From NCBI GenBank assembly GCA_964187785.1, contig OZ076409.1, forward strand, positions 9,302,001 through 9,366,000: 64,000 nucleotides of DNA. The letters are read 5' to 3'. Below the pieces are notes generated by a model. The model was given only the letters and a program-made list of their open reading frames with translations, did not search any database and was not told the DNA's origin. This document shows positions 7,132 through 64,000 of the stretch, one piece after another. Each line of letters begins with the position of its first letter. Position 1 is the first letter of the stretch. This stretch comes from Amphiscolops sp. MND2022. Its lineage: Eukaryota. The position numbers and the translations under genes are program-made.

Positions 7132-8150
7132 GGCCAGCATTTTTAAAGCAAATGAGTGCAGCCTCGAACCCATCTAGCCCATGACCTGATGTTCCGGTCT
7201 CGCACTGTTTCACCTGGGTATTCAGTCGTAGCTGTATAGGCCATCAGAGCATCAAGGGCAACTTCGTCGTAAGTCCTGCCGCACCAGTGACAATTCCCCT
7301 GAACATGAGGCATAACAGGAGGGTTAAGTTGCCTTCGTAAGGGGTTCCTCTGTTGTTGTGCGTTGTTGTCACTCCGAGCAGGACCCACACCAGCCGTCTC
7401 TATATTGCTATGAGTGCCTTGGGTGTCCAGGTACGACTTACCATTGGCGTTATAATAATATGCAACATTGACAGGCCCACTTGGGTGCAATATTTCTGTG
7501 CTTGGGTTGTATTGGGGTTGTGTCATGTTTTGAGCAGCCAAGTTTGGAAAATGGAGTTGAGCGACGGGCATACCGAACTGGCTTACCGTAGGTGTTTGCA
7601 GTATTCCTCCCCCGTTATATGGGCGAGTGTAGTCCGGTTGGGAAATCTCATGTGGAATTACCACGGGGGTATTTGGTATGGGTCTGATCGGCCCATTTCC
7701 TTGGGCGACAGTTGAAGCGATATTGCTGTCAGTATTAGGCCGCATAGATATTTGGCTTGCTGGTCTTTCAGCTCTTACAGGCAGAACAGCCAACACAGGT
7801 CTACCATAATTGTTTCTAGGGACATTTGCGAAGTTGGCATTTGAAAGCAATTCTTCACTATTGCTTCCACTCGATTCGAAGAATGAAATCGGTGAAATGT
7901 TAGGCAATTCAGTATCTTCTGAGATCATGCTCAGTATCTCCCTCTCGATATCAGTACCTGTGATATCAATCACAGATCCTTCTCTCGACTCAGGTTCGCT
8001 TACGGCGAACAATCTTGCAGCATCCCCATTTACGATTGCGGTCATGGGGTCATTAACTGGTCCCCCGATTCTGAATCTCAGGTCTATGAGTTCTGAGTTG
8101 GGTTGTTCCATGAGAAACTCCTCCCCAGAATTGCTCGAAATATTTATCAA
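7088..8150 (-). CDS. ORF X of element A: orphan protein, disordered N-terminus, conserved CxxC-containing C-terminal domain, one late frameshift, ends inside the 3' LTR
   Basis: 335-aa ORF 7143-8150; homologous to 53888-54679 (FANV.RN.YGRP; NPPVMP.V.G.CxxC; EYP.ET.RDRN.RS). The shifted frame gives CFKNAGLSQPRACVGPVEQR-stop at 7088. Confidence 0.8.
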
Positions 8151-8399
8151 CCCGGGAGAATTTGTAAAACAGAACGCATATCTTCGTCGATTGTGAAGAC
8201 GTGAGAGTTTTTTGGATATCTATTGTCCATTTGAGCTTGAAATTAGCAACTGATTCCTTTCGTGAAAATTCGTAGAATAAAAAGTTTTCACTCCTTTCCA
8301 GTTTGCGAGTGTTTTCCCGGGTTTTAGGGGTGTTGTAAACAATTCTCGGTGTCATCTTTCTTCTAGTTTGTAGTTCCCCGGCAATTCCGTAAGGCGCGT

Positions 8400-9310: not shown

Positions 9311-9311
9311 G

Positions 9312-12300
9312 ATGGTACGCTCTCGAAGTTCTTCCTGGCGGCGGAAAGCATCACCCTCAGTAAGAAGTCATCAGAATCAGCTGATTGCAGGACATTCAAC
9401 ACTGCTACAACATGCGGTAAGCTTGAATTTTGGTTGATTTTTCTGATTGAACTCAGACAGTATTTTCTTTTCTTTGTGACGTCACCGATTTTTGAAAATG
9501 CGAGTGGGCCAGACTCACATTTATTGTTGACTATCTTTCGATTTGTCAATTTCCGGTTTCCAAGTTTTAAGCGGAAATACTAATTGTTTTTTGTTTCAGA
9601 TTCTTCCCCAGCTAAACCGAAACGCAGTGCTGTTAATCCTTCCAAAGCCAATAAAGCTCCAGTAACTCAGCGATCCTTGCTGTTGCGTAGGTGGTCTCGA
9701 AAGCCACAAATAAGCGAAAGTGGTGTCCCGCCGCAGTTAATTCCGCAATTCCTCATAGAAGACAATCTCAATGAGTTTGTTGATCCAGTGGAAAGCGACA
9801 AAGCTGCAGAACTAGCGGAAACTGGAGGTGCGAGTGATTGGGCTCATCGAGAAGTAAACTCTCTTATTAATGCACCAGTGGGGGGCCTCTTACCCAGTAC
9901 TTCTTTTACCACCATTCCCTGTTCACCACGTTTAGATCAAGTTCACACTACAACTCAAAACTCTCCTTTACCAGCTTCCATTGGTAAAAGCGTCTCTCCT
10001 TTTACGAAATTTTTGACTAATTCTCCAGTTCAGGGAGATAATTCAGTCACATCTCCTGTTTCGAAGAACAGGAACACCGGGGCCTTGGAATCGCCACCCA
10101 TCACTGCCACCAGTCCCGGAGACGTCGGAGAAACGAGGCTCGAGCGCATATTGGCGGAAGCTGCAGAGGAAGCGGGCAATAAGGTCTCTTCTCGAGTAAC
10201 CAATCGCGAGGAACACAGTGGTTTATCTAGCCCGGACGGAATGGAGTCTTCACAAGCGACCAGCAAAGCGCTGAAAACCAAGGCTGCCATACAAGGGACT
10301 AAGCCAAGTGGTGAACCCAATGGTAACTCCTCTGGTTCAGACTCTAGCTTTAACTCTGAATCTTCATCTGGTCTCTCTTCGGCTGAAGAAATGGAATCGC
10401 CAGACCCCAAAACTTCGAAATGCAAGAAACAGCCCACTACCACAATGACTACATACAAAAGAGCTAAACCACGATATGTGCTAGCAGGATGGAAGTATCA
10501 TAAACATCCTATCTTGAAATTCTTTGCGACTGCACCCGCCGACGCTGCCAGATATCCACACAAATACAGGTGTCGGGTTTGCCAAGTGGAACTGTCTCTG
10601 ATGACAAAAAGTCCAATAGAGATATTACATCATTATCGCACAGATGCCCACCTCATCAAGGAGCACAGGATAAGAATGGAGACACCAGGGCTTCCCCTGT
10701 TTGATAGAGACTGTAAAGAACTCAGCGGGATGGCCCAAAAGTTGCCCCGAAACTCGGAGATTACTATTTACGGATAGGTCAGCAAGATCAAACTGAGGCC
10801 ATTAACACAGATGATCCCAGTAAAGAGATATTGTCCCTGTTGAACTTGCTCAAGATGGGGCTCATGCGGGGGGGTCAGCTCGAAACAATGATTGCACTTT
10901 GGCATGATCTGGTTAGGGAGACGAAAACGACCGAGCCTATTGTACAACACGACTGGCGGCCTCATCGAGTCCTTGTAATTATTTGTCTGCTGTAAAACTT
11001 AAGAGTTGTTTAAGGTCCATCTTTCATTGTTCGTCAGACATCTCCTTCTTTTCAGGGACTTCTAACCTACATGTTTCGGGAGCTGTTATCATTCTGCATA
11101 ACGTCCATCGAGAGATCCGGGAGCTACTCCCTCAGGATTACAGAGTGTGGCGGAGTGACCCGGCTTTTTGTACACTTTTGAGCAGACAATTCGATGTATG
11201 GGCTTTGTATCGGAGTGTTTCCAGGGCGATTATGCCCCCTGGCTATCTTCTCTCCCTATTGAGTGGTTTCTTCGCGCTAGTTGAGAAAGATGTCCACCTG
11301 CTGTTCCTCACAGGCTTCGATCCCAGGATCACTTGGACTGTGTCACGGGCGTTACCACAGCGTAGAAGAATATGTTCAACCCCTAAATTCGACGCGGAAG
11401 ATCTGGAACGCACGATGTTAGACCCTTCGGTGCAGATTCTCGATCGGTTTGACTTCAGAAGTCTTCTAGACTTCCTTCTAATGCAGCTTCGATCTGCTTG
11501 TGACAGCTCATGGATGTCATCTTTTCCAGATTTTCAACATGTTGGTACCTCCTCATTACATTTACACAATTCTTTTGTTTTCCTCAGTTTTTTAAGGTGC
11601 TCTGAAGATATTTTGATCCAATTTTCCTGTTGTTAGGCCGCCTTTCCGGGTTTCATAAGTCTTCCCTGATAGGAGCCAAATTTTGCGAATTCTGGGGGAT
11701 TTCGAGATTATAGTGGATTTTTCTTTCAACAGAGACCTTGTATGTTGTTTTGCAGCATTTTTAATCTTTTTCGGATCTCGGATAGATATTAATTTCTTTC
11801 TATGCTGTTGAAGGTTTGCGGCACAATGCAGCATAATTAGGTCATTCGTTCTATTTTTTATCAACATTTTGACTCATTACGTAATATGATTAGTCACGAG
11901 TTACTATTCTAGTGTTTCCAAATTTTTGAACGTGCATAACTAGTAATCACATTGACTTCTTCCAGTTCCTTTTCTTCATCTTTTTTTAATGCACGTGATC
12001 TTTAAACTCTGTTTCTTCATTGATTCACTTGGTTTGTTGTACTTTAGACTGTCACTGCTCTGGATAACGATATTCCTCGTGCTGTTGAAATAATGGACCA
12101 TTTGATTACGAACTGGGACAAAGTGCTACAACATTTGAAGTGCAGCAGGAGAATTCCAATGTACCGGTCCCATATGCAGGAGGTTTGTATTCTATACTTT
12201 ATTTTATTTATCTTTCAATCTGTTCCGCGCTGTTTCTGTTCATAAACTGTACAGGTACCTTTAGGGAACAATCTCTCAATCTCATTTGTTTCAGCCTTCT

Positions 12301-13669
12301 GGAATGGACGACTTGTTATTGCGAGATAAAGTTTTTGTTGCTCGCCTGTTTGTTACAAGAAACATCCTTAGCCAATGTAAGTAATCTTCCAATATCCTCT
12401 TCAGTTTCTCTCTGTTTCCCGACTGTTGTTTAGTTCTTTTCTGTTTTTTTGATTGTTGTTTCTTCTTCCTTCGTACTGTCTTCATACTTCCACTATGGCT
12501 TTGTGAGGGTCAATACTGTTTTCTTGTTCTAGACAACTCGACATTCAGTGAGGTCTTCAGTTGAACATCAGGCGGATTTCGACTCTACAATCATTATTGT
12601 GTCTTCGTGTACACTCAGTTGCAAAAGATCTTACCTGATTCCTTTCTCGGGGCAATATCTGATTGGAACAAGTATATGAGCCTCAACATGGACGACGTTA
12701 CCCTGCCCTTTAAGACTGTCGATGACATGCTCCAAGATCACGATCTTTCTGATTTGCTTTCTAAAAGCAAAATGTCTACTCCCCGGCGATTTGTACGCCA
12801 AGTAATTGCGTTCTACAAGCACTTTTTCAAATTGTTGTTGATAAATGACGTGGCCACATCTGCTTTCGTGCGGGGACTCTCCGCATTTGATGAACCAGTG
12901 GTTCGTAGCGGACGAGAAGCAGATTACACTGATGCTAACCAGAGCCTTGCAGGTTATTTTGTTCAGCAGAAATGGATGGCCCCACATACGAAACCCGTCG
13001 TAGTGAGTGAATATTGTTCGCTCGTTACCAAACTGCGTAGTGAGAATTTCCCTACAGTTAAAGACTGGGTTGGGACTTTTTCTTGTCACTATGAAATCCA
13101 ATGCCGGATTGAATTGTTTCACTTTTTTCAAGACTATTGCCAAGCTTTACGAGGACCTTGCCCCGTTCGTTTGCCTTTTAGAGTGACGATCCCCGGGTTG
13201 AAGTCCAGCCTTTCTTCAATTTTCTTCCTGTGTCAGTAGTCTTCAGTGCTCTTTGGCATTGTTCCAGAAATGTGAGAGCCTATTTATGGATTCTGCTGCA
13301 TTGCCACGAGCTTTTGAATTGGTTAAGCGAGGCCCTTCATTAATCCTCAAGAGGAACTTCTCTGTTTGGAATATCTTGTCCTCGACTCATTTCCTTAAAA
13401 CTGGGTTACTGTCTTCACTCAATGGGTATTACGCCAAAAAGGAACGGATCAACGACAGGTCTTGGATTGTGGCGGATGAAACAGCAAATTTGTCCCCTGT
13501 ACGTAGTTCGAGTGCTGAGGGTACTCCTGTGAAACGTGTTCCAGGATCACCTGATTCAACCCCTTCAAACAATCCGGTCGCCCGACGATTGACCGAAGTG
13601 CCAGTTATTTCTGAAGTTCCAGTGAAAGTCATCTCGAGGAAAAAAGGAATGCTAGTGTTCTTTAGTTGA
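9312..13669 (+). pseudogene. Antisense, multi-exon cargo gene of element A (Ser/Pro-rich region, C2H2/BED-like zinc finger, helical body possibly hAT-transposase derived); a few stops and frameshifts
   Basis: ORFs 9584-10777 (YRCRVC...HHYRTDAH), 10983-11540, 12607-13239, 13253-13669. Exons 12048-12182, 12295-12376 and 12533 onward join in frame at GT-AG sites. Homologous to 62659-64000. Confidence 0.8.
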
Positions 13670-16600
13670 AGACTCTTCTCCAAAGTTACCGGCATGGACG
13701 GTTGATCAATTTGATTTGTAATTCTTTTGTACCTTGTTGTATTTATTTGTTTTTCATTTCCACAAGGGAAAAAGAAAGAAAGATTTAGAGAGTTGAATTT
13801 TGTTGATTTTTGTTTTTAATATCTGTATGAATCTGAGAAGTTGGGATTTGAGTTGGGTCGTAAATTGTATTTTTCACCACGTGTATTGGTAGGGGTTTTT
13901 CCTTTTTGAACCTCATCGTTTTCTTGATTTCCATCTGTATTTTCTGGGGATTTTTCTGCATCAAGAGTAGGGTTAGGTTGTAAGTCTTGTTGATTATCAT
14001 TTATATCGAATTCATTTTCTGCATTTTCAGTTGGGTTTCTATATTACGAACGGTAGTTTGTTCTACTGGGGCTCCCCCTCTGTTTTTTGAAATTTCGAGG
14101 GAGGGTGGGTGGTTTATCGGTACATATTCTTGTATGTCATCTTGTTCGTTATCTGGGAGTTTTGTGTCAAATCGGTCTGTACCAAAGTTTGTATCCCATG
14201 TATGGGCATACAGATCATCGTGTAACTATTATGTTGTCATCTTTTTGCCAATCTGTTTCTCTGACAAAATTATTGGCTATTGGTGCGCTAGGTGTACATT
14301 TCCTCAAACGTATTCGGTGTAACAGTTGTGTTTTGTTTGTCCCTAGCCTTCGTACAATGTAATTATTGTTAGGTAGGACTTTTTCGACTTTGTAGGGACC
14401 TATCCAACGGAATTCTCGGAACGGAATTTTTGTTGCTTGTGTGTCTGCCTTTGGGTTCAGTATGTAGCAATAGTCTGTTGTAGTAAGAGGTGCTGCTTTT
14501 GCCTTGCGGTCATAGTATGTTTTATACTTTAAGTATGACTGCATGATATTCTTTTTGGTTTGGTCATTGAGTATCTCCATTCTGCGTTGTATTTCTTCTG
14601 CAATGTCAGACTGTGCAGTATACCGTGGGTTAGGGTTATAGCCTAGCTTGTAGTCTAGGATGTTATGTGGTATCCTGCCGTGGAAAACACGGGTGGGTTC
14701 ACATCCTAAGCTGGCATGATACGTTGTGTTGTGGTTTAAGACAGCCAGTGGTAGGAATTTGTGCCAAATATTGCGAAATTCACCTGTTGCTGCTTTCAAA
14801 TGTGTTTTTACTGTAGCATGAGTGCGTTCTAGCATGCCGATTGTTTGTCCATGTTTTGTCGAAGCATGTTTTAGTTCATTTCCAAGCACTGCTGCTACTT
14901 CGCGGGTGATCTGTGAGTTGAATTGAGTGCCCATGTCAGTTATTATGGTCGTTGGTAAATATGTGTGTTTACACAAAATGTCCATAGTGACTCTTGCGAC
15001 TGTAGGGGGCTGTGATTCGGGTTGTTGGATAAGCAAATAAATATCTTGAGAAGACATCAATTGCTGTTATGGTGTTATCAAACCCTCCACTTGGTGGTAG
15101 ATTAGGTAGGATGTCCATCTGAAGAATATCTTCTGGACCGATTTCCCATTCTGGACAATTTAAAAGTTCTGTTTTTAGTAAATCGTTATTGATGCTTTTG
15201 TTTTGAATGCACATTTGGCAGTTTTGTACACAATTTTTGATGTGCTTTGCCAAGCATGGGTAGTAATATTTCTGTCGTGCTTCCTGTATCATTTTTGTTA
15301 TTCCTGGGTGATTTGCTTTGTGTCCGTGTAATGCTTGTAGGAACTCCTCGACAAGCTGTTTTTGTAAGAGTAGTTGGTAGCGTGAAATTTGTCCGATATC
15401 ATTGTAGTATTTTCGTACAAGAATGTCTCGGCGGATTTCGATGCGGGGTATATTTTGTAGATAATGTTGGTAGCGGTTGTCTTGTGTGGACGCTGACTCA
15501 TCAAAAAGCTCACCCTCTCTTTTTGCTCTGAGATTACGAAGGACTGGGTCATTATTTTGTTCGAGTCGGATTTTTGCGTTGTCTCGGAAATGTCCTTTCG
15601 ATAATCTATTGTTCCGGCAGTTGTTTTATGGAAATTTGTAATTCAGTTATTTCATTTTCCGGTTCGTTGTGTGTTTCTGTTTGTGCTTGATTTCTAATAT
15701 TGTCTTTTTGTTCCCAGAGTGTTTTTTCATCGTTATCATCATCTGGGTGGATGTAAATTTGTTCTTCTTCAGCTATGCCAGAGGATTGTATATTAACCTC
15801 GATAGCTTTTGTTTGTAGGTCGTTACGTAAATTCATTTCTAGTTTTTCTGTCGGGTTGATTTCCGTTCGCGACAAGAAGTCTGCAGCCGTATTCATTGCT
15901 CCTGTCACATGTGCTATGACGAAATTGTACTGCAGGACGTAGTCGCATGCGTTCCATAGTGCTGGGGGAATGATTCGTGTTTGGAAAAATCTGGTGACTG
16001 CTCGGTTGTCGATAAAGACAATTACAGGAAAAGTACTACCCCACATTAGGTGTCCAAATTCTGAGAATGCAAAGAAAATGGCTAAAAACTCTTTCGCATA
16101 TATTGACATTTTTAGTTGGGTTGAGTTGAAAGTTTTTGAGCCGAATGCGATTGGGGCGTATGTTTTGCGTTTGGATTGTAATTTTTGTTGAGGGTCGTCT
16201 TCAATCATAATCGCATATCCTGCAGCTGTAAAACTGGCATCTGACATGACGATTAGTTGTTTGTCTTTAAGTGGTTGTTTGAGTGCCATTTGGCAAGATT
16301 GAAGGAGGAGGGTGTTTAACTGTTCAAAATTGCTTGTAAATTCAGTAGCAATGTAGAATTTGTTGGTTTCCTTCAGTAGTTTGAAGAAAGGGGTGAGTCG
16401 TTCCGAAAAGCGTGGTATACAATTTTGTAATAATTCAGAAAACCAATAAACCTTTAAAGGCCTTTTTTGGATTTGGAGAGTTTAAGTTTCGCTAAGAAAT
16501 CTTTGACTTTGTCTACTTGGGGAGAAACTCCTTCAGGTGTGATCGTTCTTCCCAGGAAGTCGACCTGTTTGACTCCAAAATGGCATTTTGACATTGACAA

Positions 16601-18765
16601 TTTCATTCCTGCGTTCCGTATACATTCAAAGACTGCTCGGATGTTTATACACAGCTGTGTCACTGTGTTTGCTGCAAGTCCGATGTCATCGACGTATTGG
16701 GCGCATTGGTCTGCTTTGATGAGGGTGTCTAAGTATTCCCTTATGAAACCGGAGAATGCTGAAAGTGATCGGCTAGGGCCTTGTGCTATCCGCCGATACG
16801 CAAAGGTTCGGCTAGCAAAGTTAAAGGCCAACATCTGAATTGATTGGTAATCTGCCATCTGAAGGCAGTGGTACGCTTGTGAACAGTCAAGTTTACAAAA
16901 AAAATTTCTTTCCTGCCATATGTTGGGCTGCATCGGAAAGTGTACCGACTGGGTGGTTGTTATTTACGTAGTCTTCGGAGATGAGATTCTTCATCTTGCG
17001 CAAGTCGACTAAGAGTCGCAAACGACCATTAGATTTTCGTTTCGCATATTTAGACTTGCGTATTTAGAGAAAGGTAGAGTTGTTATTATACCATACTTGT
17101 GAAGTAGGGCAAGTTCTACCGTGATGTCATCTTTTAGGTTGATCGGAGTTGGAAGACTTCGACTGTATGCTGGTCGATCATCATTTGGTGTGAGTTTGAC
17201 TTTGAATTTTTTTTTTGTTCCGATGTCAAACCTGTGTCTGGCAAAAATTTATGAAATTCAACCGGCAGTTCTTCCACTTTTTGTCGTTCGAAAAGAGTGA
17301 GTGTTGTGTCACTCCAATCAAAAGTGTCTAGAAACGTTTTGCGTGATTTTTTGTCGTCTTGTGGGTTGAGTTTTTCTAGTGTTTGAAGTTCCACTAGTTC
17401 ATCAAACATTCGTTTCTGAATGGGTGTATATGTTGTGGGGTCTCCAGGTTGTTCCGGTGTTGGGAACCAGTATTGTTCCGTTTTGTCTTCTTTGTCGTTT
17501 ACTTTTAAAAGTTCATTGAGGTATACGTCCGTAACTTCAGTATGTTGGTGCATGATGAATGTTAGCATTGAGGGGTTGATTGGTTTAATATGTTGCAACT
17601 GTTCTGGGGTTAAAACTCGAAAGTCGGCTAGGTGTTTGTCTGTTGTGATTGTATATGGTAGTTCTGAGAAAGTACATATTTGGTATCCGACTGCGTAATT
17701 GTTGACTGTGCAGAGGGAAGATACAAGGAAAAGTGTGTCATGATCCTCAAGGTGCGTAGATGGCGTTACTATGCCTGTTGCATCATGATCAATTAAATGT
17801 GGCATTCTGCTCGCAATGAGCATCGTTTCACCCGGTTGCAGTGTGTATGTTGCTTCTGCAAGTAGTGGTGTTCATTGTCGTGTTGGAAGATTGTGTTCTG
17901 GTTTCAATTGCATTGATAAATGTGGAAAAGTTATTATTCCTTGTCGGATGTCAAAAATGGCATTGTTCCTTTTTAGGAAACAAAGTCCATTTAGGGGGTT
18001 GGGGAAAGACTTTCATGACAATCATGAAGAACATAAAATCTGCCACTTCAAATGTTAGGCAGACTGTTCCGATTGGCGTTTCCAATTGTCCGTTTGCTAC
18101 CATTATTTGAAAATTGGGTGCAGGACCTGTGTCTGTTATTGCTTCTGGTGCAAGAAGTTTGATTTTATTTAGGTCTTGTTCCGATATTGCGCTCGTGAGA
18201 GCTCCGGTATCGATTAGACCGTCAAGTGTAAGCTTTTCGAAATCCATCGGAAAGTAATATATATGGGGTTTACTTTTAATGTCAGGTTGGTTGATAGAAG
18301 AAGCATTGGTATATCTGTTTCTTTATTAATCGTAAGATGATTTGGAATTTCGTCATCTATGAGGGGTAATTTTGGTATTGATGCAGATTCGGTTGGTGTT
18401 ACATATGAGTCTTGTGTTTGGAGAGGTTCAAAATTGTTTTTCGGAAGAGGTTCTGGTAAATTTTGTGGTGAGGTTTCGGGTTCAGATTCAAACAGATTTT
18501 CTGTTTTTTTCGTTACTTATGTCAAGGTGTGTGGTTATGTATCTGTCAGGGGCGTCTCTGTATATTTCATACAGGTCGTCCTCTGATTCATTTTGTTGAG
18601 TTCCTGGAGTCTGAGAGTCGGTCTGTTGTGTGAAAGTGTTTGTTTTTATTGGGTGAGGAGTTGGATGCTGCCAGTCATCTTTCTCCTCTGGTTTTGTAGG
18701 GCGTGGCTTTATTAGTTTAAATCCTTCGATGATGAAGGTTGTTGTCTGGGTGCTTTCGGGTTAAA

Positions 18766-20460
18766 ATGTTGTTGGAGTTTTTGTAATTTTCAATGTGTTT
18801 TTTCTGTGCTTCGGTTAGTGTCCACATCGGGGGGCGATTTTCCATATTTGCTCCGAAGTAGCATGTTGGTTCCTCATGTCCTGGTGCGTTACAATGCGCA
18901 CAGCGTATGACATCAGGGTCTTCTTCCAGCTTACGACGTTTTGCTAGTTTAGCGCAGTCTGCTGCCTTGTGCCCTGTGTTTTTCCAATAACGACATTGGT
19001 CATCTTGCAATGTATTGTTGGGCACCGTTTTTGGTGTTTATTGCTTCTTTTTTGTTGTTGCAGTTTTCTGCTGAGGTGGTTTGTCTTCTGCTTGTTTGTT
19101 TAATACCGTCATTTGCGTTTTAACGCCAGTGATTCGAGTCCATTTAATTCCATCTCACGTTCGAGATGTCGGACTATTTGCTCGTATGTTCCATTTTCAA
19201 GATAGGCTTGATTAATAGAACGTTTCAAGTGTGGTGGCATTTTTGCATAAAATAGATTTTCTATCATTTGTGATGCAATGTCACCGAAGGCTTTTTCGGT
19301 GCTTTCTTGTAGTTCTTCTAAGAAGTGTGGTAGTTTCTGGCGTTCCGGGTCAAAAACCAAGCGATGAAATCTATGTTTTGCGGGTTGTGGGTTGAGTTTT
19401 TCTAGTGTTTGAAGTTCCACTAGTTCATCAAACATTCGTTTCTGAATGGGTGTATATGTTGTGGGGTCTCCAGGTTGTTCCGGTGTTGGGAACCAGTATT
19501 GTTCCGTTTTGTCTTCTTTGTCGTTTACTTTTAAAAGTTCATTGAGGTATACGTCCGTAACTTCAGTATGTTGGTGCATGATGAATGTTAGCATTGAGGG
19601 GTTGATTGGTTTAATATGTTGCAACTGTTCTGGGGTTAAAACTCGAAAGTCGGCTAGGTGTTTGTCTGTTGTGATTGTATATGGTAGTTCTGAGAAAGTA
19701 CATATTTGGTATCCGACTGCGTAATTGTTGACTGTGCAGAGGGAAGATACAAGGAAAAGTGTGTCATGATCCTCAAGGTGCGTAGATGGCGTTACTATGC
19801 CTGTTGCATCATGATCAATTAAATGTGGCATTCTGCTCGCAATGTTTGTTGGAGTTTTTGTAATTTTCAATGTGTTTTTTCTGTGCTTCGGTTAGTGTCC
19901 ACATCGGGGGGCGATTTTCCATATTTGCTCCGAAGTAGCATGTTGGTTCCTCATGTCCTGGTGCGTTACAATGCGCACAGCGTATGACATCAGGGTCTTC
20001 TTCCAGCTTACGACGTTTTGCTAGTTTAGCGCAGTCTGCTGCCTTGTGCCCTGTGTTTTTCCAATAACGACATTGGTCATCTTGCAATGTATTGTTGGGC
20101 ACCGTTTTTGGTGTTTATTGCTTCTTTTTTGTTGTTGCAGTTTTCTGCTGAGGTGGTTTGTCTTCTGCTTGTTTGTTTATTACCGTCATTTGCGTTTTAA
20201 CGCCAGTGATTCGAGTCCATTTAATTCCATCTCACGTTCGAGATGTCGGACTATTTGCTCGTATGTTCCATTTTCAAGATAGGCTTGATTAATAGAACGT
20301 TTCAAGTGTGGTGGCATTTTTGCATAAAATAGATTTTCTATCATTTGTGATGCAATGTCACCGAAGGCTTTTTCGGTGCTTTCTTGTAATTCTTCTAAGA
20401 AGTGTGGTAGTTTCTGGCGTTCCGGGTCAAAAACCAAGCGATGAAATCTATGTTTTGCGG
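18766..20460 (-). repeat. Internal complex duplication in element A
   Basis: ~19385-19843 repeats ~17359-17817 and ~19844-20460 repeats ~18766-19383; near-identical translations in the ORF track. Confidence 0.9.
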
Positions 20461-20869
20461 ACGCACTAGATTCGGGCTTGACAGATTTTCTCCGAAACAC
20501 TACCAGTATATCTCCAAGTGTGGTTGTTGGTGTTCGCTGAATATTTTTAAATGTTTTAAATGCTAATCCACGCAAATGTGCGTGAAAATGATTTATTTTC
20601 ATTTCCTCAGTTAATGTGGGTTGAATTCTGAGTGTTGTATGGAAAAGATCTTCGAAATACTCGAATTTCTCATTCTTTTCCAATTTCCCATTGAAGGTGG
20701 GTGTATTTTTCGGATGAAAGAGTGATAGTTGTGAATTACGACTCGCTAATTTCTCAATAGCCTTTGCTATTTGGTTAACGGGGTCTTGCTGGATGTTGAG
20801 TGGTTCAGCAATCAGATGTTCATTGTGTGTTGTTGTTGTATTGTTTGAGCTTTGAGGATGAAGTGGTTT

Positions 20870-20886
20870 GGTAGCTCCTGTCACCA
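20870..20886 (-). promoter_or_regulatory. Primer-binding site of element A (TGGTGACAGGAGC), directly abutting the LTR
   Basis: TGG immediately after the LTR-terminal CA; the same TGGTGACAGGA follows the LTR in C (from 43418) and D (from 56367). Confidence 0.8.
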
Positions 20887-22358
20887 TGTGATAATCCTCT
20901 TGTGTGCGGTCCTCATTTATGACCACAGAGTCATTTAGTGTCATCTGTTTTGGTAGTGACCACAGAGTCATCATGTTTTGTATACTCAAAGGTTGTATTG
21001 GCGTTCTAAGTTCATTCATGTTAGATGGCCTGAAAGGATTATCCTGTATTTCACATTCTTGATTTTCTGGCTCAGATGCGTTTTCTTCACCGTCCTCATT
21101 ACTTGTGTATTTCAAGGTTCCTGCTCTAGGGGTGTTTTGTTCTCGGCATCGTCTGTTTGGTACGGACTGTGTTCTCCTGTTATTTTTCATCTCTTTCAAT
21201 ATTTTCTCTAACTTCTCATCCATTTCTTTTCTTAAGTTTGCTTCTTTTTTGTTCGTTTTATCTAATATTCTTTGGGTCCAGATTTGCATTTCATTTTCAT
21301 TCTGTGTTCCACTGTCTAGAGCTGTTTCTTCGTCCCTAACTGAACTGGCATTTTCAAAGTTACTTAAAGTTTCGATAAGTTTCATTACCTTGTGATTTTT
21401 CTATTTCGGATGTGCTCAACTCTCTCTCAAGCGAGGGTGACTGTCCTCGTCTAGATCTTCTATTCCTCTTGTTACCCGTTTTAATCAGGTTAAAATGCTG
21501 TTTTGGAGAGAAGAATTTCAATTAGAATGATGAGCAATGTAAAATTAGGTTGAAATAAAGTTGAAGAAAATGCGCATAATGTTAAGTTATCAAAGTTGAA
21601 ACAAAAGTTGTGAGGATGAAAAGAAAGGTCTGATCAGTCTGAAAGTTTTCTGTATAATGAATAATATTGGGTTTCTTACTCTCCTTTTTGATTTGAGCTA
21701 AATTATAAAAATCACTAAACATAGTACCCAATTTAATATAAAAATAGGTTTGTAAGTTACATCACTTCTATAAATAGATTCCTGCATGACGAATATTTTC
21801 CTGTATTTTGATTGGTCATCACACTAACTGTACCAATCCGTTCATCGTTAATGAGAAAAATGTGACAACACATAGTATGACTCATATGTAATGCAAGTAT
21901 CAATTTCAACATAGTGTAGCATGTATGATTAAGTCAACGTAATGAGTCATGCACTTAAAAGATAGAGTTGAAAAATGTGATATTGAACTGCATTGTGCTG
22001 CAAACGTAGTGCGGCAGATTGATTCAAATATTAAAGTCCTTATGCATTAATGCATCGTACAAATCATGTATAATTTATTCATTTCACTACAAATTGTGTT
22101 AAGCAGTATTATACATCAAATATGTTAACACCTTTCAACATTTGGTGAATTGTTCATGAATGGATATTACTTTACAAGTACAGTTAACTAGAATAGCAAA
22201 CAAATTCAAACAATGCTGGTGTACAAAAGTCATATATGAATTCATACAAAACAAGGTTCAAGAAGTAAGGAGTTTTCTTCAGTTTGAAATAGTAGATGGG
22301 CGAGTCATTTGCCTCTATCGCTGCTCTACGGGTCCAACACAAACTCTAGGCTGTGACA
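20887..22358 (-). repeat. 5' LTR of element A
   Basis: Direct repeat of 5641-7131; carries a short local duplication near 20940 and a ~50-bp deletion near 21703 relative to the 3' LTR. Confidence 0.95.
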
Positions 22359-36733: not shown

Positions 36734-36739
36734 GTGTAC

Positions 36740-52533: not shown

Positions 52534-52687
52534 ACAATGTTCTGTTTCTTCCACTTCCTTCATTTATGCTTCACGTATCAATATGTATGAAAAAATTAAT
52601 TTTCATGTAAAAACATGTTTCACAAAACATTTTTAAAAAAATTCTTTTTTTGCACTATAAAACGTTCATCTTTTTGGGCCCGGAGGA

Positions 52688-53331: not shown

Positions 53332-53759
53332 AATTTGTTCAAGTTCCACATATTAGCATAAATTTAGCTCTCACAAATTGTGAACAAGAATTATGAGTCA
53401 GATCAGTATCTAGTGATGAATGAAATTTACGCTTCTAATACTTCACATGTATACCAATGTAAAACAGAACTCAGTTTGAAATAAAAACAACAAATATGAA
53501 ATTACATGACTAAGTTATGATGTTAGGGGGATTGGTTTATAGTCCTTGTTGAACAAGTAAAGTTGATAATCTGCTAAAAACCGGGTTTGACAGTTTCTAG
53601 TTTCCTTACAAATTGCCCCATGGCTCCAACACAACAGTGGGGTTGTGACAGTCCCGTACTTTTTCAAAGGAAAATAGAGCTGCAACAAGCCCGTCGACCG
53701 AGGATCTGAACCTTCCATTCATGTCCCAGACTGCCTCCCTGTCCTCCCCCGGAGAACGA

Positions 53760-54679
53760 ATGCAGTCAGACGCGGCCCTAGATCTGATAAACATATCTAG
53801 CAGTTCAGACGAAGGATTTGTAGTGTAACCTTTGACTTTGACTGAAATGAAAGATAGGTTCAGAGTCGCTCTTCATCAATTGCGAGCATGCCCGTTGCCT
53901 TCATAGGATCTACGGAAGCTTCGTTGTTCGTGACCAACTCAATGGAAACAGAATCACGAGGATGCATAGATACAAGGGGGATAACTATTGAGTCCGAACT
54001 GATGGACTTGTTGAACGATATACCTGACATTTCCCCAGTGACATTCATCGATAGCTCAGAAGAAGAGATGGACCCATTTCCAGAAGCTAACTTTGCGAAT
54101 GTGCAAAGAAATGCATATGGACGTCCCACACAAAGAGTATATCCTATCCCTAGACCCCAAGTTACAAACCCGGGACAACGACCAGAAGCAACACGTGACA
54201 TCAATCCTCCGACGATACCTAGTCAGGTGAGTGCTTTCACAGCATATATTGCCCCGCAACAAAGGACAGCTGACTTTAATGCACGACCAGTTCAACAAGC
54301 CGCATACCTGCCGATGCCTGTGCCATTCTACCCCAATGGGTGGAACAACCAAGGTTGTGGGCCGGTTAACAACAATGCACACTCAATCCCATCAAACAAC
54401 GCCTTTCCCCAGAATGGACCAATACTCCAGATGAACCCACCCGTTATGCCCGAAGTTGCGGGATACTGCTCCAGTTGCATGAAAACAAACGATCACATTG
54501 CAGTTGAAACCTTGACTAGCTACATTGCCTGGTCAGAATACCCTGAAGAAACTATTCGAGATCGGAATATGAGGTCGAGAGCTTTTGTGGACGGGTTTGG
54601 AGCAGCCCTGATCTGTTTTAAAAATGCTGGACTGTCGCCCGGTTACCCTTGCGAGATGTCCGGGGTGCAGCACCGGTAA
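53760..54679 (+). CDS. ORF X homologue lying upstream of the D LTR (N-terminus disrupted)
   Basis: LINISSSSDEGF near 53780 matches INISSNSGEEF of A; 263-aa ORF 53888-54679 shares the C-terminal domain. Confidence 0.8.
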
Positions 54680-56366
54680 GCAGATCAGTACTGCATCATC
54701 CTTCACAATGCCCGAAGACCCAATGCCAGCCTTATGAACTTTGAAAAACATTCAAACTAAACCATAAACTGAGACATTTGTTCTCAAATAACTGTTCTCG
54801 TTGCTATTTCTTATGTTTGTTTAAGTTAAACCGTTAGTTGATGTTGGTTTTTGTGGACTTACGTCCTGTTTGATTTACATGTGACAACGGCCTAACCGTT
54901 GAAAAAAGACAAAGAAAAAGACAAAAGCTCAATAAACTAGTCATTAGTGACGATGTTACTAATCTGACCAGATCCAAATCTCTGTTTTGCTCCACAGTTA
55001 TATTGTAGGAAATTGTGGTATACATGACAGTAATTTCAATATTTTAGTCAAGTTACATCATGGTTATGCAAGAAGTGTGTGAAATCAGTATGATGTTTTA
55101 TCTTGAATGCAGCATGACAAAATATCCCTCCAAAATAGTACTAAATTATGCTGCTTTATACGGTTTGTAATGATCGGCATATTCGGTATTTTTAGTAAAA
55201 CAGCATAATATGGATATATATACTGTCGCTTATGCTTTATACCGTATTATACTGGAAATGCTCAAAAACAGCATGATGATTTAACTCAAAAACGGCATAT
55301 GAAGGAAACTCTGGAAAACAGCATGATGTTCACACTCGAGAACAGCATAATGACCGCCAGCACCACGGCACTGTTCAATCGTACTGTATTATGCGGTTTT
55401 CATGAAACTGCATATGCAGAATTATATCGGAAAACAGCATAAATTGCATAATATTACACATTAATCCGCCGCTACATTGATGCTTTATGTAGACCTTCTT
55501 GGGACATGATTTCATGATTTATTTTTAACTTCTGACCCTAGAAACATGACGTAATGACGATTTTTGTAAAAATGCTGGTCATGCTACTAAAAATATTACC
55601 CAATGAAATCATTTTGTAGATACTTTTGAAATCAGTGTTTCCATTATCATTCGACAAGATAAGATGCAGAAATCAGTCACTCTAAATCAGAGAACTGCTT
55701 TCCATCAATTCCAAACTTTGCAGTTTCTTTCATTGTAAAGATAACTCCAAATTTTCATTTCTACAATATCTTTGAATATCAAAGATTTCCCTCAACTTGA
55801 AGTAGTTTTCAACATGGGAAATAGAAGGAACAGACGTACAAGGAGAAATGAGTCTCAGTCTCCAGAGAGAGATGAGAATATGTCAGAAACAAGCCTTCTA
55901 CAAGGTAATGCGACTTTAACTAATGTTTCTGAAATTGTTAATAACGTTTTTGACAGGAACTTAGGTAGCGAACTAACGGAACCATCACAAATCAGTAATG
56001 AGATAGAAATAATTTCTCAAAGGCTGTCTGAACAAAACAGTAACAAGATGACACAGATAGAACACCAGTTGAATAACAAATTTGAAGAAATACTTAAAGA
56101 AATCAGAGCAAACAAAAACTGTAACACAATAACTGATGAGGAGGACGTTGAGAGTAGACAGGCAGGTCCTTCAAATGCAAAACCCAAGGGTCTCAGGAAC
56201 AAACACGCATCGAACATGACAATAGAAAGAGATCAGGATGATCGGTTTTACTCGTCTGAAATGAGTGAATTAAGGCAACCATATACTCCGATTGGAATTA
56301 CAGATGAGACTTTAGATGAGACCATAATAATAAACGAAAACAGACAGGAAAATGCCGATCATCACA
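54633..56366 (+). repeat. Inferred ~1.7-kb LTR of element D
   Basis: Start placed by analogy to A (AAAAATGCTGGAC then TGTCGCC); ends TCACA before the PBS TGGTGACAGG at 56367. Partner LTR is not in the window. Confidence 0.7.
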
Positions 56367-59300
56367 TGGTGACAGGACCTACCAAGAACATCCTGAGACA
56401 AAATTCCAGTAATTCCAACACAACAAACCCAGTGGGACCACACGCAGAAACTCTTTTTGAACACCCTCAATCATCAGATCCTGTTAGCCAAATTGCTTTA
56501 GCAATCAAAAAACTGGCACATAAAAACCAAGAACTCTCAATCGTCCACCCGAAAAATACACTTACCTTCAATGGTAAACTAGAAAAAAACGAAATGTTCG
56601 AATACTTCGAAGATCTTTTCCACACAACACTTAAAATGCAACCACGTCTCACGGAAGAAGTGAAAATAAACCACTTTCACGCCCACCTCAGAGGGCTAGC
56701 ACTGAAAACATTCAAAAATATACAACGAACACCCACAACAACACTCGAAGACATCTTGGTAGTCTTCCGCAGAACGTATGTAAAGCCTGAATCTAGTGCT
56801 TCAGCCAAACATAGATTTAACAAACTTGTGTTCCAACCTGAAAACCAGAAGCTACCTGACTTTCTTGAAGACAAGAGAGTGCAGAAATAGCATTTGGGGA
56901 AGCAGCGCCACAAATGATCGAATGCCTCCTATACCAAAATGCCTCCCCACTTAAAGAAATCCATCAACCATGCGTACCTTGAAAACGGTACATACGAACA
57001 AATCGTACGACACTTAGAACGCGAAATGGAGCTCAATGGACTCGAAGCAGATGAACCCCTTGTCAAAACACAGATGACAGCAGTAAAACAACAAACAAAC
57101 GTACAAAACACCAAATCTCAGCCACAAAACACAAAAACAAAAAAAAACCCCAAACACAGTCCCCAATAACACGCTCCAGAACAACCAATGTCGCTATTGC
57201 AAGGAAGAAGGTCACATAGCAAAAGAGTGCCCCAAACTTGCAAAACGACAAAAATTGGACAATGATTCAGATGCACCACGATGCGCCCATTGTAACACTA
57301 CAGGTCATGAAGAACCCAATTGTTATTTTGGAGACAACATGGAAAATCGCCCACCCAAGTGGACTCTCACAGAAACTCAACAAAAACTCATTGATGAGTA
57401 TTAAAAATCAAACAAACCCATCAACCCCCGAAACTCGAAACCTTCAACATCGAAGGATTTAAAATAATAAAGCCACGCCTTCAAATAACATCACCACAAA
57501 AACAACTCTCAGCAGATGACTGGCAGCATCCGCCGAGTCCAAAACCTATAAAAATCACAGTCTTCGATCACAACTCGACCAACAAAAACGACTCACATAC
57601 TACAAACACACAAACTACCACACCCGATAACCCATCTGAGGATCTATATGACTTACTCATGGATGCCCCAGATAACTACATACTCCGCCAAACCTTCGAA
57701 CCTGAAATCGAGCTGGAAACAGAAAATCAACACCCCAATACTTCATACACTCAAGAAAACCAAACCGAACACCCAAACACACAATCCACATCAACAACTC
57801 AAACTGACAATGAAACCATGTCAGGATTAACAAAAACTTTTTTTAATGCATCACCTGGGAAACAACCCCTCCTTGACAATGATGTTTTCAATCATCTAAC
57901 TACAGATGAAGGCAACAACATCATGTACTTAAACCTCTCAACAAACCTAACCCTCAAAAAGAAACGTCATATGTATTATTTCCCATGGATTTCGAAAAAT
58001 TAACCCTGGATGGACTCATAGATACAGGCGCCCTCACCAGTGCCTTTTCTGAAGCAGATCTCAATAAAATTAAACTACTATCCAATGAAGCAATCAAAGA
58101 CACAGGTCCAGCACCAAACTTCCAAATCATGGTGGCAAATGGTCAACTGGAACGCCCCATTGGAACTGTCCTACTTGAATTCGAAGTAGCAGACTTCCAA
58201 TTTCAAGAAAATTTCATCGTCATGAAAACACTACCCAATCCACTCATTGGATTGTGTTTTCTACAAAGACACAATGCCCTTTTTGATATTCGACAAGGAA
58301 TAATATCATTCCCATATTTGTCAATGCAGCTACGACCTGAACACACAACAAACACCCGAGTAGCAACACCTTTGTTGACTGAAACTACCTACACCCTGCA
58401 ACCCGGAGAAACTCTTGCAATCCTCAGCAAAATGCCCCATTTAATAGACCACAATGCAACAGGAACTGTGACTCCGTCTTCACACATGGAGGAACACGAA
58501 AGCATTTTCATTACCTCCTCACTCAGTACGGTAAACAACAATGCAGTATGTTACCAAGTGATTAACTTCTCAGATATGCCTTACACTCCTCCCGTGGATA
58601 CACATATGGCAGATTTCCGAGTACTAACCCCAGAACAAATCAAACACATCAAACCAGTTGACCCATCAACTCTCACCATCATGATGCACCAACACATCGA
58701 AAATACGGATCTATACCTCAACCAACTGATGAAAACAAATCAATCGTCAGACGAACAAGAAACGTACTGGTTCCCGACACCTGAACAACCCGGTGATCCG
58801 ACAACATATACGCCCATTCAACAAAAAAATTTTGACGAACTCACAGAACTTAAACAACTTGAACAACTAAACCCAAACGACAGCGAAGAATCAAAAAAGA
58901 AATTCCTCGACCATTTCGACTGGACCGACACCACTCTCAGCCCATTCGAAAAACAACACATTGAAGACATTCTTGTACAATATCACGACATCTTTGCCAG
59001 ACATCGTTTTGACATTGGCACTAACAGAGAATTTAAGGTTAAATTGACGCATAATGATGATAGACCAGCCTACAGCCAAAGTCTCCCTACGCCAATCAAC
59101 CTCAAGGATGACATAACTGTTGAACTGGCCCTACTCCATCGTTATGGAATCATCACGACCTTACCTTTCTCTAAATATGCAAGCCCCATCTTTGCTCAGC
59201 GAAAACCAAATGGACGTCTCCGCTTTTTGGTGGACCTTCGCAAAATCAACAAACTCATCACACAAGACTACGTAAACAACAACCACCCAGTCAGCACTTT

Positions 59301-62300
59301 GTCGGACGCAGTACAGCACATGGCCGGGAAGAAGCTTTTTTGCAAACTCGATTGCTCCCAAGCATACCATTGTTTGCAGATGGCAGACTACCAGTCAATC
59401 CAGATGCTGGCATTTAATTTTGCTTAAGCCACTCTCTGTCTGCTTTCTCATCCTTTTTGAGAGAATACCTGGACAAAGCGATAAAAGCTGACCAATGCGC
59501 CCAATATGTTGATGACATTTGCATAGCCGCAAATGATTCAACTCAATTGTGCATCAACATCAAAACAGTCTTCGAATGCATTAGAAAAGCAGGCCTCAAA
59601 CTTACCATGGCTAAATGCCATTTTGGAGTCAAACAAGTCGACTTCTTGGGACGAACAATCACCCCAGAAGGAGTTTCTCCACAATCCGAAAAAGTCAAAC
59701 AGTTTCTTCAAAAACTCAACTTTCCAAAATCCAAAAAAGCTCTTCAAAGCTATATTGGGTTTCTCAACTACTACAGAAACTACCTTCCTCGGTTATCAGA
59801 AAAGCTTTCGCCTTTCTTCAAACTGCTCAAAGGAACTTCCCAGTTCTGTATACCAAATACACTCCTAGACACTTTCAATGAACTAAACCAACAACTGGAA
59901 AAATCATGCAGTCTTGCCCTCAAACAACCAATCAAAAACAAACAACTGATTCTCATGACTGACGCCAGTTTTACAGCAGCCGGTTACGCCATCATGATTG
60001 AAGATGATCCTAACCAGAAACTTCAATCCAGAAGAGAAACCTATGCCCCAATCGCGTTTGGGTCAAAAACGTTCAACCCAACCCAACTCAAAATGTCAAT
60101 TTACGCAAAAGAATTCTTAGCAAGTTTTTTTGCGTTTTCCGAATTTGGACATCTCATGTGGGGAAGCGTGTTTCCCGTTATCGTCTTCACAGATAACCGT
60201 TCAGTAACTCGCATCTTCCAAACAAAAATAATAACACCACCTCTCTGGAATGCCTGCGAATATGTCCTATAGTACAATTTCGTCATAGCACATGTAGCAG
60301 GAGCCATGAACACAGCTGCTGATTTCCTTTCAAGAGCCGAAGTAAATCCGACCGAAAAACTCGAAATGAACATCCGAAATGATGTTACAACCAAAGCCAT
60401 CGAAGTCAATATACAGTCCACAGGAGTTGCTGAGGAAGAATCTCTCTACATTCTACCCGAAGAAGTCCTATCAGAACAACAATTGTGGGACGAGAAAGAA
60501 TCACTTCGCAAATCAGCGAAGGAAGAAACTCATAATGAACCAGAAAATGAAATATCCGAACTCCAAAACTTCCATTAACCCACAGCTGGAACAATTGACT
60601 ACAGAGCGGGTCACTTCAAAGACAATGCAAAAACACGTTTAGAACAAAACAACGATCCAGTTTTACGCAACCTTCGAGCAAAAATTCAAGGTGAACCATA
60701 TGACGAAACTGCACTTACACAAGACTATAGATATAAACACTACCTACAAAACATACCTCGTCTCGAAATTCGACAGGAAATCCTTACTATAAGATACTAC
60801 AATGACACGGGTATGATCTCCCATTACCAAATTCTCCTACCCCGACAACTCCTAGATGAATTCTTACATGCTCTTCATGGGCATAATGCAAACCACCCAG
60901 GTATCACAAAGATGATTCAAGAAGCACGACAAAAGTACTATTACCCATGCATTGCCAAACACATCCGATCTTGGGTCACGAAATGTCAAATGTGCATACA
61001 AAACAAACGGATCAGCAATGACCTCCTCAAAACCGAACAATTGCCCGGAATGGGACTTAGGCCCTGAGGATATATTGCAAATGGATAATCTCCCAAACCT
61101 ACCCTCAAGTGGAGGCTATGACATAATCATCACAGCAATAGACGTGTTTCCACGATATCTGTTCGCATATCCAGTCACAAGAATCACTGCCCCAGCAGTT
61201 GCAAAAGTTATCATGGACATTTTATGTAAACACACATACCTACCCACAACAATCATCACAGATATGGGAATACAATTCAATTCTCAGGTTACAAAAGAAG
61301 TAGCTGCAGTTCTGAGTATAGAACTTAAACATGCCACAACAAAACACGCCCAAACAATTGGACTGTTAGAACGCACTCATGCATCAGTCAAAGCACACCT
61401 AAAGGCCGCCACTGGAGAATTCAGAAACAACTGGCATAAGTTTCTACCTTTGGCAGTCCTAAACCACAACACAACCTATCATGCAACACTCGGATGCGAA
61501 CCCACAAGGGTTTTTCACGGACGAACTCCGCACAATATACTAGATTTCAAACTTGGGTATAATCCAAATCTCCGTTTCCAACCCCAAACCGAAGTAGCAG
61601 AAGAGGTTCAAAGACGAATCGCACTACTTCACGATCAGACGGAGAAAAACATAATGCAATCTTACCTTAAATATAAAGCTTACTATGACAGGAAAGCAAA
61701 AGCAGCACCTCTTACATCGTGGGATTATTGCTTTATCTTAAATTCGAAAGCCGACACACAAGCGACCAAAATTCCATTCAGAGAATTTTGTTGGGTAGGA
61801 CCTTATAAGGTCGAGAAAGTCTTACCAAATAATAACTATATCGTCCGAAGATAGGGCACAAACAAAACCCAACTACTCCATCGTATTCGATTACGAATAT
61901 ACATTACACAAGCGCCCTTAGCAGATAATTTCGTAAAAGAAACTGATTGGCAAAATGAAGATACAGTCATTGCCCAAGATGATCTATATGCACACACTAG
62001 GGACACTAATTTTGGATCGAGCCCTTTCGATTCTGAGCACGAAACTAATGATCAGCAAGAAGACATAGTGGAATAAGAACCTGTTTCTCAACCCGAAATA
62101 TACCGCCCTCCCTCCCCCGAAATTTCTCAAAACAGTGGGGGGACCCCAGCAAAACAACCTGCTGTGACTGACGAAGAGCCCCAAACAATCACAAAAGAAC
62201 CTACAGAAAATGAAAATCATAAGCCCATTCCAGAAACTTTAAGAAATCCAGAAATCTCACAAGATACCCCAACCCAAAACTTCCCAAAAACTCCCGAAAA

Positions 62301-62412
62301 TAACCCAGAAATTGATGCACAAAAAACAGAAAAAACAGTTAACACAAGAGGTGAAAAGTACAACCTACGCCCAAGCCCAAACCCTAACTACTCAGACTCA
62401 TACAGATATTAA
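55814..62412 (+). pseudogene. gag-pol of element D, disrupted
   Basis: MGNRRNRR start, two CCHC knuckles (~57188-57325), LIDTGA, YVDD, LMTDASF, integrase 60813-61854, C-terminal YNLRPSPNPNYS. Confidence 0.95.
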
Positions 62413-62658: not shown

Positions 62659-64000
62659 TCATTTATCACCAGAATCTTTCTTAGCCTTCTTGCCCTTGAT
62701 TACTAGCTTCTTAGCCCCGCTGGAGCTACTGTCAGAAAGAAACGGGACATCTGCGACTACCCGAGGAACAGAAAATGTCGGAGTCGAAAGTTTAGGACTA
62801 GAACCTTTGGGTTTACCACTTGATTCAGCTCCTCGAGCTCTGCCTGGAAAAGGAGTAGGTTGCACAAATTTGCCACTTGAAAGGATAGGCCCAGGAGCAG
62901 ATGTTTTGGGGCTAACCACAACGGAAGTCCATAAAGCTTCTTCATCGGAGATGGTACACGTATAACGCGACTCCAGTTTGTTAAGCAGTAGGCGCCGTCG
63001 AGAAGAACAGGAAGCAGTGACATCCCAAACTGAAAACGTCGCGTCAGACAGTAAAGCATTGCCTTTACCAAGCAACGAGAAAACAGGTGAGATTGTGCGA
63101 GGATTTGAAAAAAGCCCAGACACATTAGGAATCCCAGATAAAGAGGACTGGATACTTCGGACAGACGATCTAAATTCATCGGCATCAGAAGCTAGCTGAG
63201 GAAGTGTCACGGTGAAATGAGGCGGGATTGCGGAATGATTGGCAAGGCTAAGACAACATAACTTGAAGGCAAGGAACAGGTTCTCACGGCAGTGCATTTC
63301 ATAGTAACCAGACAAGAAATCCACCCATTCTCCGTCATGTTCAATAACATTGGATCCAAACTGAGCGACAAAGGAGTGATATTCGCTGTAAATCAAAGGT
63401 TTTACATTACTGCTGATCCATTTACTCTCCACAAAGAAATCACGAAGCATCTCGCATTCACGAGAGTAATCTTCTTCCTCGCCATGCCGCACGATAGCTT
63501 CATCAAAGATGAAAAATCCTCGAACCAATTTGGATTTACAAACTTTATGGCTCAATAACAACGCACAGATGTTTCTGCAGAAACACAATGCCTGCTCCAC
63601 AAAATGGGTAGGTGTCGGAATGCCCTTCTCAGCTACCAGATTAGCAAAATCTCTATTACGGAGAAAATCTGCAGCAGTCTTTAAAGGAAGGCTGTTTGAT
63701 GAGAGATCAATTGACAGGAAATGATCCCAATCAGACACTTCTCCGAGAATTGACTCCGGAAGGATAGCTTGCAACTGTGAGTAAGTAAAGGTTGCGAAAG
63801 CGCTGTAAAAGCGGAAGATGTCTGGTGATGGCCCATAGACATTTTTGAAGGCAGAATTATCTAAACACAAACGAAATGAAAATGGGGTAAGAAACCCGAT
63901 GACAACCGCAAAAAGGAAAAACTTACAATGCAAGAGAACATTCCGAATCAGGAACAACTTCGCAGGATACGTCTTGTCCTTGTAGGTAGTCTCATCAAGG
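62659..64000 (-). CDS. Last two exons of the antisense cargo gene of element D (intron 63861-63926)
   Basis: Uninterrupted ~400-codon last exon homologous to 12533-13669 (YSQLQAILPESILGEVSDW vs YTQLQKILPDSFLGAISDW). Confidence 0.85.
   Translation of the reverse strand, partial: LDETTYKDKTYPAKLFLIRNVLLHCKFFLFAVVIGFLTPFSFRLCLDNSAFKNVYGPSPDIFRFYSAFATFTYSQLQAILPESILGEVSDWDHFLSIDLSSNSLPLKTAADFLRNRDFANLVAEKGIPTPTHFVEQALCFCRNICALLLSHKVCKSKLVRGFFIFDEAIVRHGEEEDYSRECEMLRDFFVESKWISSNVKPLIYSEYHSFVAQFGSNVIEHDGEWVDFLSGYYEMHCRENLFLAFKLCCLSLANHSAIPPHFTVTLPQLASDADEFRSSVRSIQSSLSGIPNVSGLFSNPRTISPVFSLLGKGNALLSDATFSVWDVTASCSSRRRLLLNKLESRYTCTISDEEALWTSVVVSPKTSAPGPILSSGKFVQPTPFPGRARGAESSGKPKGSSPKLSTPTFSVPRVVADVPFLSDSSSSGAKKLVIKGKKAKKDSGDK

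Follow-up and report, generated by a model that had tools for sequence, protein, structure and literature searches.

Retroelements normally lose introns, since they pass through RNA. Two diverged Ty3/gypsy copies (A and D) in the window, the whole stretch of 64,000 nucleotides that was analysed, each carry a gene on the strand opposite to gag-pol, and this gene is interrupted at the same position in both copies by a segment with the appearance of an intron. The question raised by this locus is whether the segment is a real intron and, if so, how an element that moves through RNA could hand it on. The best explanation, to which a probability of about 0.8 is assigned, is that the gene located antisense between pol and the 3' LTR has six predicted introns, that the segment is the last of these (intron 6), and that it would be spliced from the mRNA of that gene and passed on backwards in the genomic RNA.

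Retrotransposon copies A and D

The following features of the two elements were identified in the window.

5636..5640, + strand: target-site duplication TGTGC of copy A (5 bp), second copy at 22359-22363
5641..7131, - strand: 3' LTR of copy A, whose identity with the 5' LTR is 96.4% (1,437 aligned columns)
7143..8219, - strand: second extra open reading frame, on the gag-pol strand just ahead of the 3' LTR, with a relative at 53858-54679 (+)
13816..21483, - strand: gag-pol of copy A, interrupted and partly duplicated, with about 150 nt between the pol and antisense stops
20887..22358, - strand: 5' LTR of copy A, TG...CA, holding the start of gag
54633..56366, + strand: 5' LTR of copy D, its start approximate and placed by likeness to copy A
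55814..62412, + strand: gag-pol of copy D, with reverse transcriptase (RT), RNase H and integrase in this order, interrupted
62659..63860, - strand: exon 7 of the antisense gene of copy D, an open frame encoding a predicted helical domain and then a Ser/Pro/Lys-rich tail
63927..64000, - strand: exon 6 of the antisense gene of copy D, ended by the window edge

The RT-RNase H-integrase order in pol of both copies is that of Ty3/gypsy elements. Copy A is complete (5641-22358), with TG...CA LTRs and a 5-bp target duplication, and the 3' end of copy D lies beyond the window. The LTRs and TGTGC flanks around copy A place the antisense gene inside the retrotransposon. The gene occupies the interval between pol and the 3' LTR, is seen whole in copy A and partly in copy D, and is conserved among copies. 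In copy D, the pol stop and the antisense stop face each other about 250 nt apart.

A TGG-starting motif resembling a primer-binding site directly follows the 5' LTR in copy A (at 20886) and in copy D; no tRNA genes to which it could be matched were found within the window. A polypurine tract was sought in the 44 nt (7132-7175) before the 3' LTR of copy A, and no clear purine run was found there. The gag frame starts within the LTR (20887-21483 and 5641-6205 on the - strand, 55814-56366 on the + strand) and continues past the end of the LTR and across the primer-binding-site motif; the 3' LTR therefore bears a copy of the gag N-terminus. The second extra open reading frame and its relative are 39% identical, with third codon positions most changed and no Pfam match. 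At 53858-56366, the 3'-internal open reading frame of another copy precedes the 5' LTR of copy D, which suggests two tandem units with one common LTR. The gag-pol region of copy A contains internal duplications of 473 and 620 nt with >99% identity (17346-20460), which may represent a recent rearrangement or an assembly artefact.

The intron 6 junction

The two segments at the shared position are as follows.

12377..12532, + strand: intron 6 of copy A, 156 nt, phase 1, GT-AG, with one in-frame stop
63861..63926, - strand: intron 6 of copy D, 66 nt, phase 1, GT-AG, in frame and open

The original prediction held that both copies carry a phase 1 intron running from GTAAGT to TAG and splitting a Tyr codon, and a re-reading of the sequence confirmed these features of the two segments. 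A single codon letter, T, stands before the donor and AC (copy A) or AT (copy D) follows the acceptor, which gives TAC or TAT, and the exon peptides on both sides are those that had been quoted. The two segments differ in length and sequence (156 versus 66 nt, with unalignable interiors), and the splice sites and the flanking protein are kept. The exon before the donor (24 residues) has nine identities between the copies, a score reached by none of 10,000 shuffles; compared as nucleotides, the same exon falls short of significance, as its score is reached by 49 of 200 shuffles. The first 150 nt past the acceptor are aligned at z 7.3 (0 of 200 shuffles), whereas the intron interiors give no alignment, their score being equalled or beaten by 195 of 200 shuffles. 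The chance of GTAAGT and YAG at two fixed positions is about 7e-6 per copy, a rough value from local base composition for sites chosen post hoc.

It had also been stated that this pair of copies is direct evidence of splicing under selection. That wording was too strong, as both lengths are multiples of three and the segment of copy D contains no in-frame stop and is spanned by an open reading frame (62659-63999, - strand), so copy D alone can be read as unspliced. The underlying claim, that the antisense gene was spliced and selected, is upheld by the wider evidence from five further GT-AG introns in copy A, relatives, an intron-less pair of proteins and the codon pattern. Judged from these sequences, intron 6 is real with high probability.

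Predicted exons and introns of the antisense gene in copy A

The exon model of copy A was drawn with the relatives as a guide.

9312..13669, + strand: whole antisense gene of copy A, seven exons and six GT-AG introns, about 1,140 codons
9312-9416, 9600-10974, 11056-11540, 11637-11739, 12048-12182, 12295-12376 and 12533-13669, + strand: antisense exons 1 to 7 of copy A
9417..9599, + strand: intron 1, 183 nt
10975..11055, + strand: intron 2, 81 nt
11541..11636, + strand: intron 3, 96 nt, at whose donor the likeness of the relatives stops
11740..12047, + strand: intron 4, 308 nt, covered by no relative and the weakest supported of the six
12183..12294, + strand: intron 5, 112 nt, at a position common to read-through proteins of the D subfamily

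In its present state, the gene of copy A is disrupted by frameshifts and a stop. A GT donor, a YAG acceptor, a pyrimidine-rich body and a frame that is rejoined on removal were found for the introns. The introns of copy A are T-rich (43-50% T versus 22-35% in the exons), and each of the six contains at least one in-frame stop. The lengths of introns 4 and 5 are not multiples of three. A YTRAY branch motif is present in three of seven introns. Neither AATAAA nor ATTAAA was found downstream of the antisense stop, read on the strand of the gene, in copy A or D. On the gag-pol strand, all six introns of copy A read CT...AC.

Relatives in protein databases

A search with exon 7 matched 43 proteins, 42 of them strongly, all of which are unnamed ENA entries. 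A profile search recovered 247 clusters at 50% identity, with aligned members down to about 18% identity. These relatives were apparently called without splicing, so that many of them extend into the intron, and their residues reflect its final bases. A phase 1 acceptor (TAG or CAG, followed by AY) is read as Leu-Asp (LD) or Ser-Asp (SD). Among the 105 relatives that cover the intron 6 junction (304 examined), LD or SD is present in 92, QY in two and other residues in 11; P0173 and P0195 resemble one-residue register slips and were counted as misses. The corresponding counts in 31 non-redundant rows are 22, one and eight, respectively. In 25 non-redundant rows, no residue is found in more than 11 rows in the columns upstream of the acceptor, against 19-22 rows in the exon columns, with a four-residue offset allowed for.

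Other junctions of the gene were also located in the relatives. The donor of intron 2 reads VS or VG, the residues expected from a GT donor, in 29 of the 30 relatives with a locatable exon end (50 examined, 20 unscorable), and the acceptor of intron 1 reads SD in four relatives, of 50, that were matched by motif search. On this evidence, it is very likely that the antisense gene, with its introns at shared positions, is spliced.

In the D subfamily (copy D, P0035, P0041 and P0050), intron 6 is open in frame in all four read-throughs, so an unspliced product is possible there. On the upstream side, the reading frames of P0035, P0041 and P0050 also span intron 5 and exon 5; introns 5 and 6 are both in frame and open in this subfamily, and P0050 extends over 532 residues through both.

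Linkage of the antisense gene to pol comes from copies A and D only. Pattern searches gave 597 and 255 matches in metagenome contigs, 174 in viral contigs and 54 in prokaryote genomes, and none of these was confirmed as a further DNA copy. Three proteins (P0326, P0042 and P0043) are chimeric open reading frames in which the antisense protein is joined to gag, pol or other element sequence, and they probably arose from nested insertions. Distant members are found in the P0144, P0203 and P0274 clusters, on contigs of 1.1-4.1 kb. One of these clusters is also present in JGI and MGnify, and the family may extend to other hosts.

Selection on the antisense frame

Exon 7 of copies A and D shows identities of 0.54, 0.64 and 0.36 at the first, second and third codon positions, respectively, the third positions being the most different. 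Of 84 shared residues, 44 are encoded by different codons. The sense strand over exon 7 contains 14-24 stops in each frame; an overlapping sense-strand open reading frame was thereby ruled out as the source of constraint. Since the sense frames are closed, the constraint acts on the antisense frame. The codon pattern indicates that the antisense gene was under purifying selection. Identity between copies A and D is 38% for the antisense protein, 54% for gag, 71% for RT/RNase H and 83% for integrase, and by this comparison the constraint on the antisense protein is weaker than that on pol.

Intron-less proteins

Two proteins, P0275 and P0279, pass from exon 6 to exon 7 with a single Tyr between them, the residue that the original prediction called for. 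Their contigs measure 220 kb and 1.03 Mb, a size from which a genomic origin is most likely. In exon 6, P0279 is identical to the intron-bearing P0171 at 23 of 24 residues. Both proteins are cut short (84 and 178 residues) and are 81/84 identical to each other; they may represent two alleles of a single locus.

In a tree of 35 hand-chosen rows (33 database proteins and window copies A and D), P0275 and P0279 are grouped at 100/99 and nested among intron-bearing rows. The nesting branches have bootstrap values of 86-91, under the strict mark, and the stem branch of the pair measures 0.21 changes per site. A topology with the pair forced beside the seven most distant rows was rejected (p-AU 0.010), this grouping having been named after the tree was known. 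One lineage thus appears to do without intron 6, and its loss seems exact at the protein level. A loss that is both exact and derived is best explained by spliced RNA copied back to DNA.

The encoded protein and the question of a hAT origin

A C-x2-C-x16-H-x5-H finger is located near the end of exon 2 of copy A (9600-10974) and is present at the exon 2 end in 46 of 50 relatives. No match to zf-BED in Pfam was obtained among 32 proteins scanned, and neither exon 7 nor the finger and exon-3 proteins reached the cut-off of any Pfam family. Neither Transposase_28 nor a Pfam hAT family matched the antisense protein, and no solved structure was matched by sequence. The best scores in the ESM Atlas (0.85 and 0.81) are under the lead level, and Foldseek searches against the PDB and viral models returned nothing, also on a second look at its 44 rows.

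The model of exon 7 has a confident helical domain (pLDDT 84.6); an earlier model built from 33 rows (pLDDT 41.9) was set aside. Among 48,161 solved chains, the best fold match of this model is the Hermes hAT transposase (PDB 8edg), in which residues 365-609 are aligned with residues 2-246 of the model (Z 5.7, rmsd 7.4, 178 aligned residues, 9% identity). This Z score is under the usual background of 7-8 and is tied with four unrelated rows. The idea of a hAT relationship predates the fold search. An invariant acidic column was sought among the relatives in exon 7 and none was found. In exon 3, inspected by eye with a guessed register, two positions that presumably correspond to the hAT Asp residues are not Asp in 5/5 and 4/5 relatives, respectively.

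The likeness to hAT transposases thus consists of a CCHH finger near the N-terminus and a C-terminal helical part that is aligned in order with Hermes 365-609. In the available text of one study, hAT transposases carry a predicted N-terminal CCHH/CCHC BED finger, and the finger of Hermes binds DNA (PMC10368747). The antisense protein differs from Hermes in its length (about 1,140 versus 612 residues) and from hAT transposases in the weak score, the lack of a Pfam BED or hAT match and the lack of an invariant acidic residue; its gene also lies inside an LTR element flanked by a 5-bp duplication, not an 8-bp one. On balance, an origin of the protein from a hAT transposase whose catalytic acids were lost is slightly favoured. 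A role of the protein as a nuclear DNA-binding accessory factor that aids expression or integration of the element is a tentative proposal.

Proposed mechanism

The mechanism outlined here draws on the sequence together with what is established about retroelements. The genomic RNA would be made off the gag-pol strand, on which the introns are reversed and would not be spliced. Reverse transcription would copy the reversed introns intact, so they would likely be handed on in each round. Their reversed orientation in the genomic RNA is the likely reason why the introns survive. A separate antisense mRNA would be spliced and then translated. About 1.1 kb of non-coding DNA lies before exon 1, from which an antisense promoter belonging to the gene is inferred; an internal promoter upstream of exon 1, with splicing of its transcript to about 1,140 codons, is predicted with high confidence. 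In one lineage, intron 6 would have been lost by recombination with cDNA made from the spliced antisense mRNA, and this route is considered probable.

A broader scenario can be put forward with more reserve. An animal retrotransposon lineage might have captured a whole intron-bearing hAT gene backwards and kept its introns through deep diversification, their reversal shielding them from splicing of the genomic RNA, the enzyme having become a non-cutting DNA-binding helper and single introns having been lost through the element's own RT. This scenario is possible, and the balance is somewhat against it.

Alternative explanations

The segment might not be an intron but a variable hydrophobic stretch, inserted in frame in a protein made without splicing. 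Its lengths of 156 and 66 nt, both multiples of three, agree with such an insert, as do the open segments of copy D, P0035, P0041, P0050 and P0154. The stop in the segment of copy A and the lengths of its introns 4 and 5 do not, and the LD/SD alternation fits TAG/CAG and not residue chemistry. Most called open reading frames of the relatives start within the segment, and the intron-less proteins show exactly Tyr; an insert is considered highly improbable. A more substantial alternative, although still an unlikely one, accepts the introns and attributes the intron-less proteins to an ordinary processed pseudogene that arose outside the element, to a deletion by chance or to gene calling that takes splicing into account. 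P0275 and P0279 are known as proteins, possibly from two alleles, and both are shortened, which would agree with such an origin. However, both begin at the exon-6 Met, as does their intron-bearing sibling P0171, and this start agrees with retention of intron 5; the other proteins of the set run through introns, so the caller does not splice. The length of the pair's stem branch also argues against it.

Another possibility is that the gene is part of a separate intron-bearing DNA transposon of hAT type, or of a domesticated host derivative of one, that was inserted in the retrotransposon and is simply carried along. The finger and the weak Hermes match are compatible with this, as are the greater divergence of the antisense protein between copies A and D than that of gag, RT/RNase H and integrase, and the fact that direct linkage to pol comes from copies A and D and not from the 247 database clusters. 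Against it, the gene occupies an identical tail-to-tail place behind pol in two diverged copies, and a passenger would have lost the codon-position pattern across the A-D split. Moreover, no clear terminal repeat pair was found among the longest 25 of 76 inverted pairs at 8100-14400, the best flanking pairs in this set being low-complexity sequences of 17-18 nt. An independent transposon is regarded as improbable. A resident antisense gene of the element, spliced from its own mRNA, remains the preferred reading.

Comparison with known antisense genes

Antisense open reading frames between pol and the 3' LTR are described in the available text on the plant gypsy elements Grande (gene23), RIRE2 and Retand (TRP28/Transposase_28) (PMC7264820, PMC11963269). 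Grande gene23 is described there as having its own promoter and a nuclear product (PMC7264820), and the Retand antisense open reading frame encodes Transposase_28, a domain named after a transposase, for which DNA binding is predicted (PMC7264820, PMC11963269). In the passages available, a review treats such open reading frames as being of unknown origin and function and calls for a search for spliced antisense transcripts (PMC7264820). The gene in the window resembles those of Grande, RIRE2 and Retand in that an antisense gene occupies the same place and orientation, and it is a variant of the known antisense extra genes between pol and the 3' LTR. It differs in having six introns, whereas the word "intron" is absent from the available text of the Retand paper (PMC11963269). 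The hosts of Grande, RIRE2 and Retand are plants, whereas the host of the window elements is probably an animal, as suggested by a BEL/Pao element in the window, a type not known outside animals.

Antisense reading frames in this position are also known in fungal gypsy elements. The brtn gene of Botrytis is reportedly multi-exon and spliced, and would in that case be a direct precedent for antisense introns. According to passages that cite its description, brtn is an additional antisense gene in a gypsy element, found in Boty-like elements of Botrytis cinerea (Zhao et al. 2011, PMID 21802103). It is fungal, is likened to the window gene by description only, and its citing passages do not mention a transposase origin. 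In a search of titles and abstract openings, with subscription papers outside its scope, no multi-intron transposase-like antisense gene of an animal gypsy element was found among the matches listed.

With six introns and hundreds of diverged relatives, the family represents a geometric exception to intron loss by retroelements. One exact intron loss appears to be present, and a family-wide map of losses could test recombination with reverse-transcribed mRNA. If the hAT origin is true, a retrotransposon has taken over the enzyme of a different class of mobile element as an accessory protein; if the capture of a hAT gene is true, the many copies of the family would offer a natural system in which RT-mediated intron loss could be tested. 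Automatic annotation would take these multi-exon genes for host genes or fragments.

Other repeats in the window

A BEL/Pao element with 315-nt LTRs that are 95.6% identical was identified at 44072-53002. A separate decayed gypsy element is located at 28600-39800 (- strand), with gag and RNase H matches and a strong GC skew. Short tandem-type repeats are present at 53023-53332, 41567-42187 and 23982-24590, the first two sites having repeats in common.
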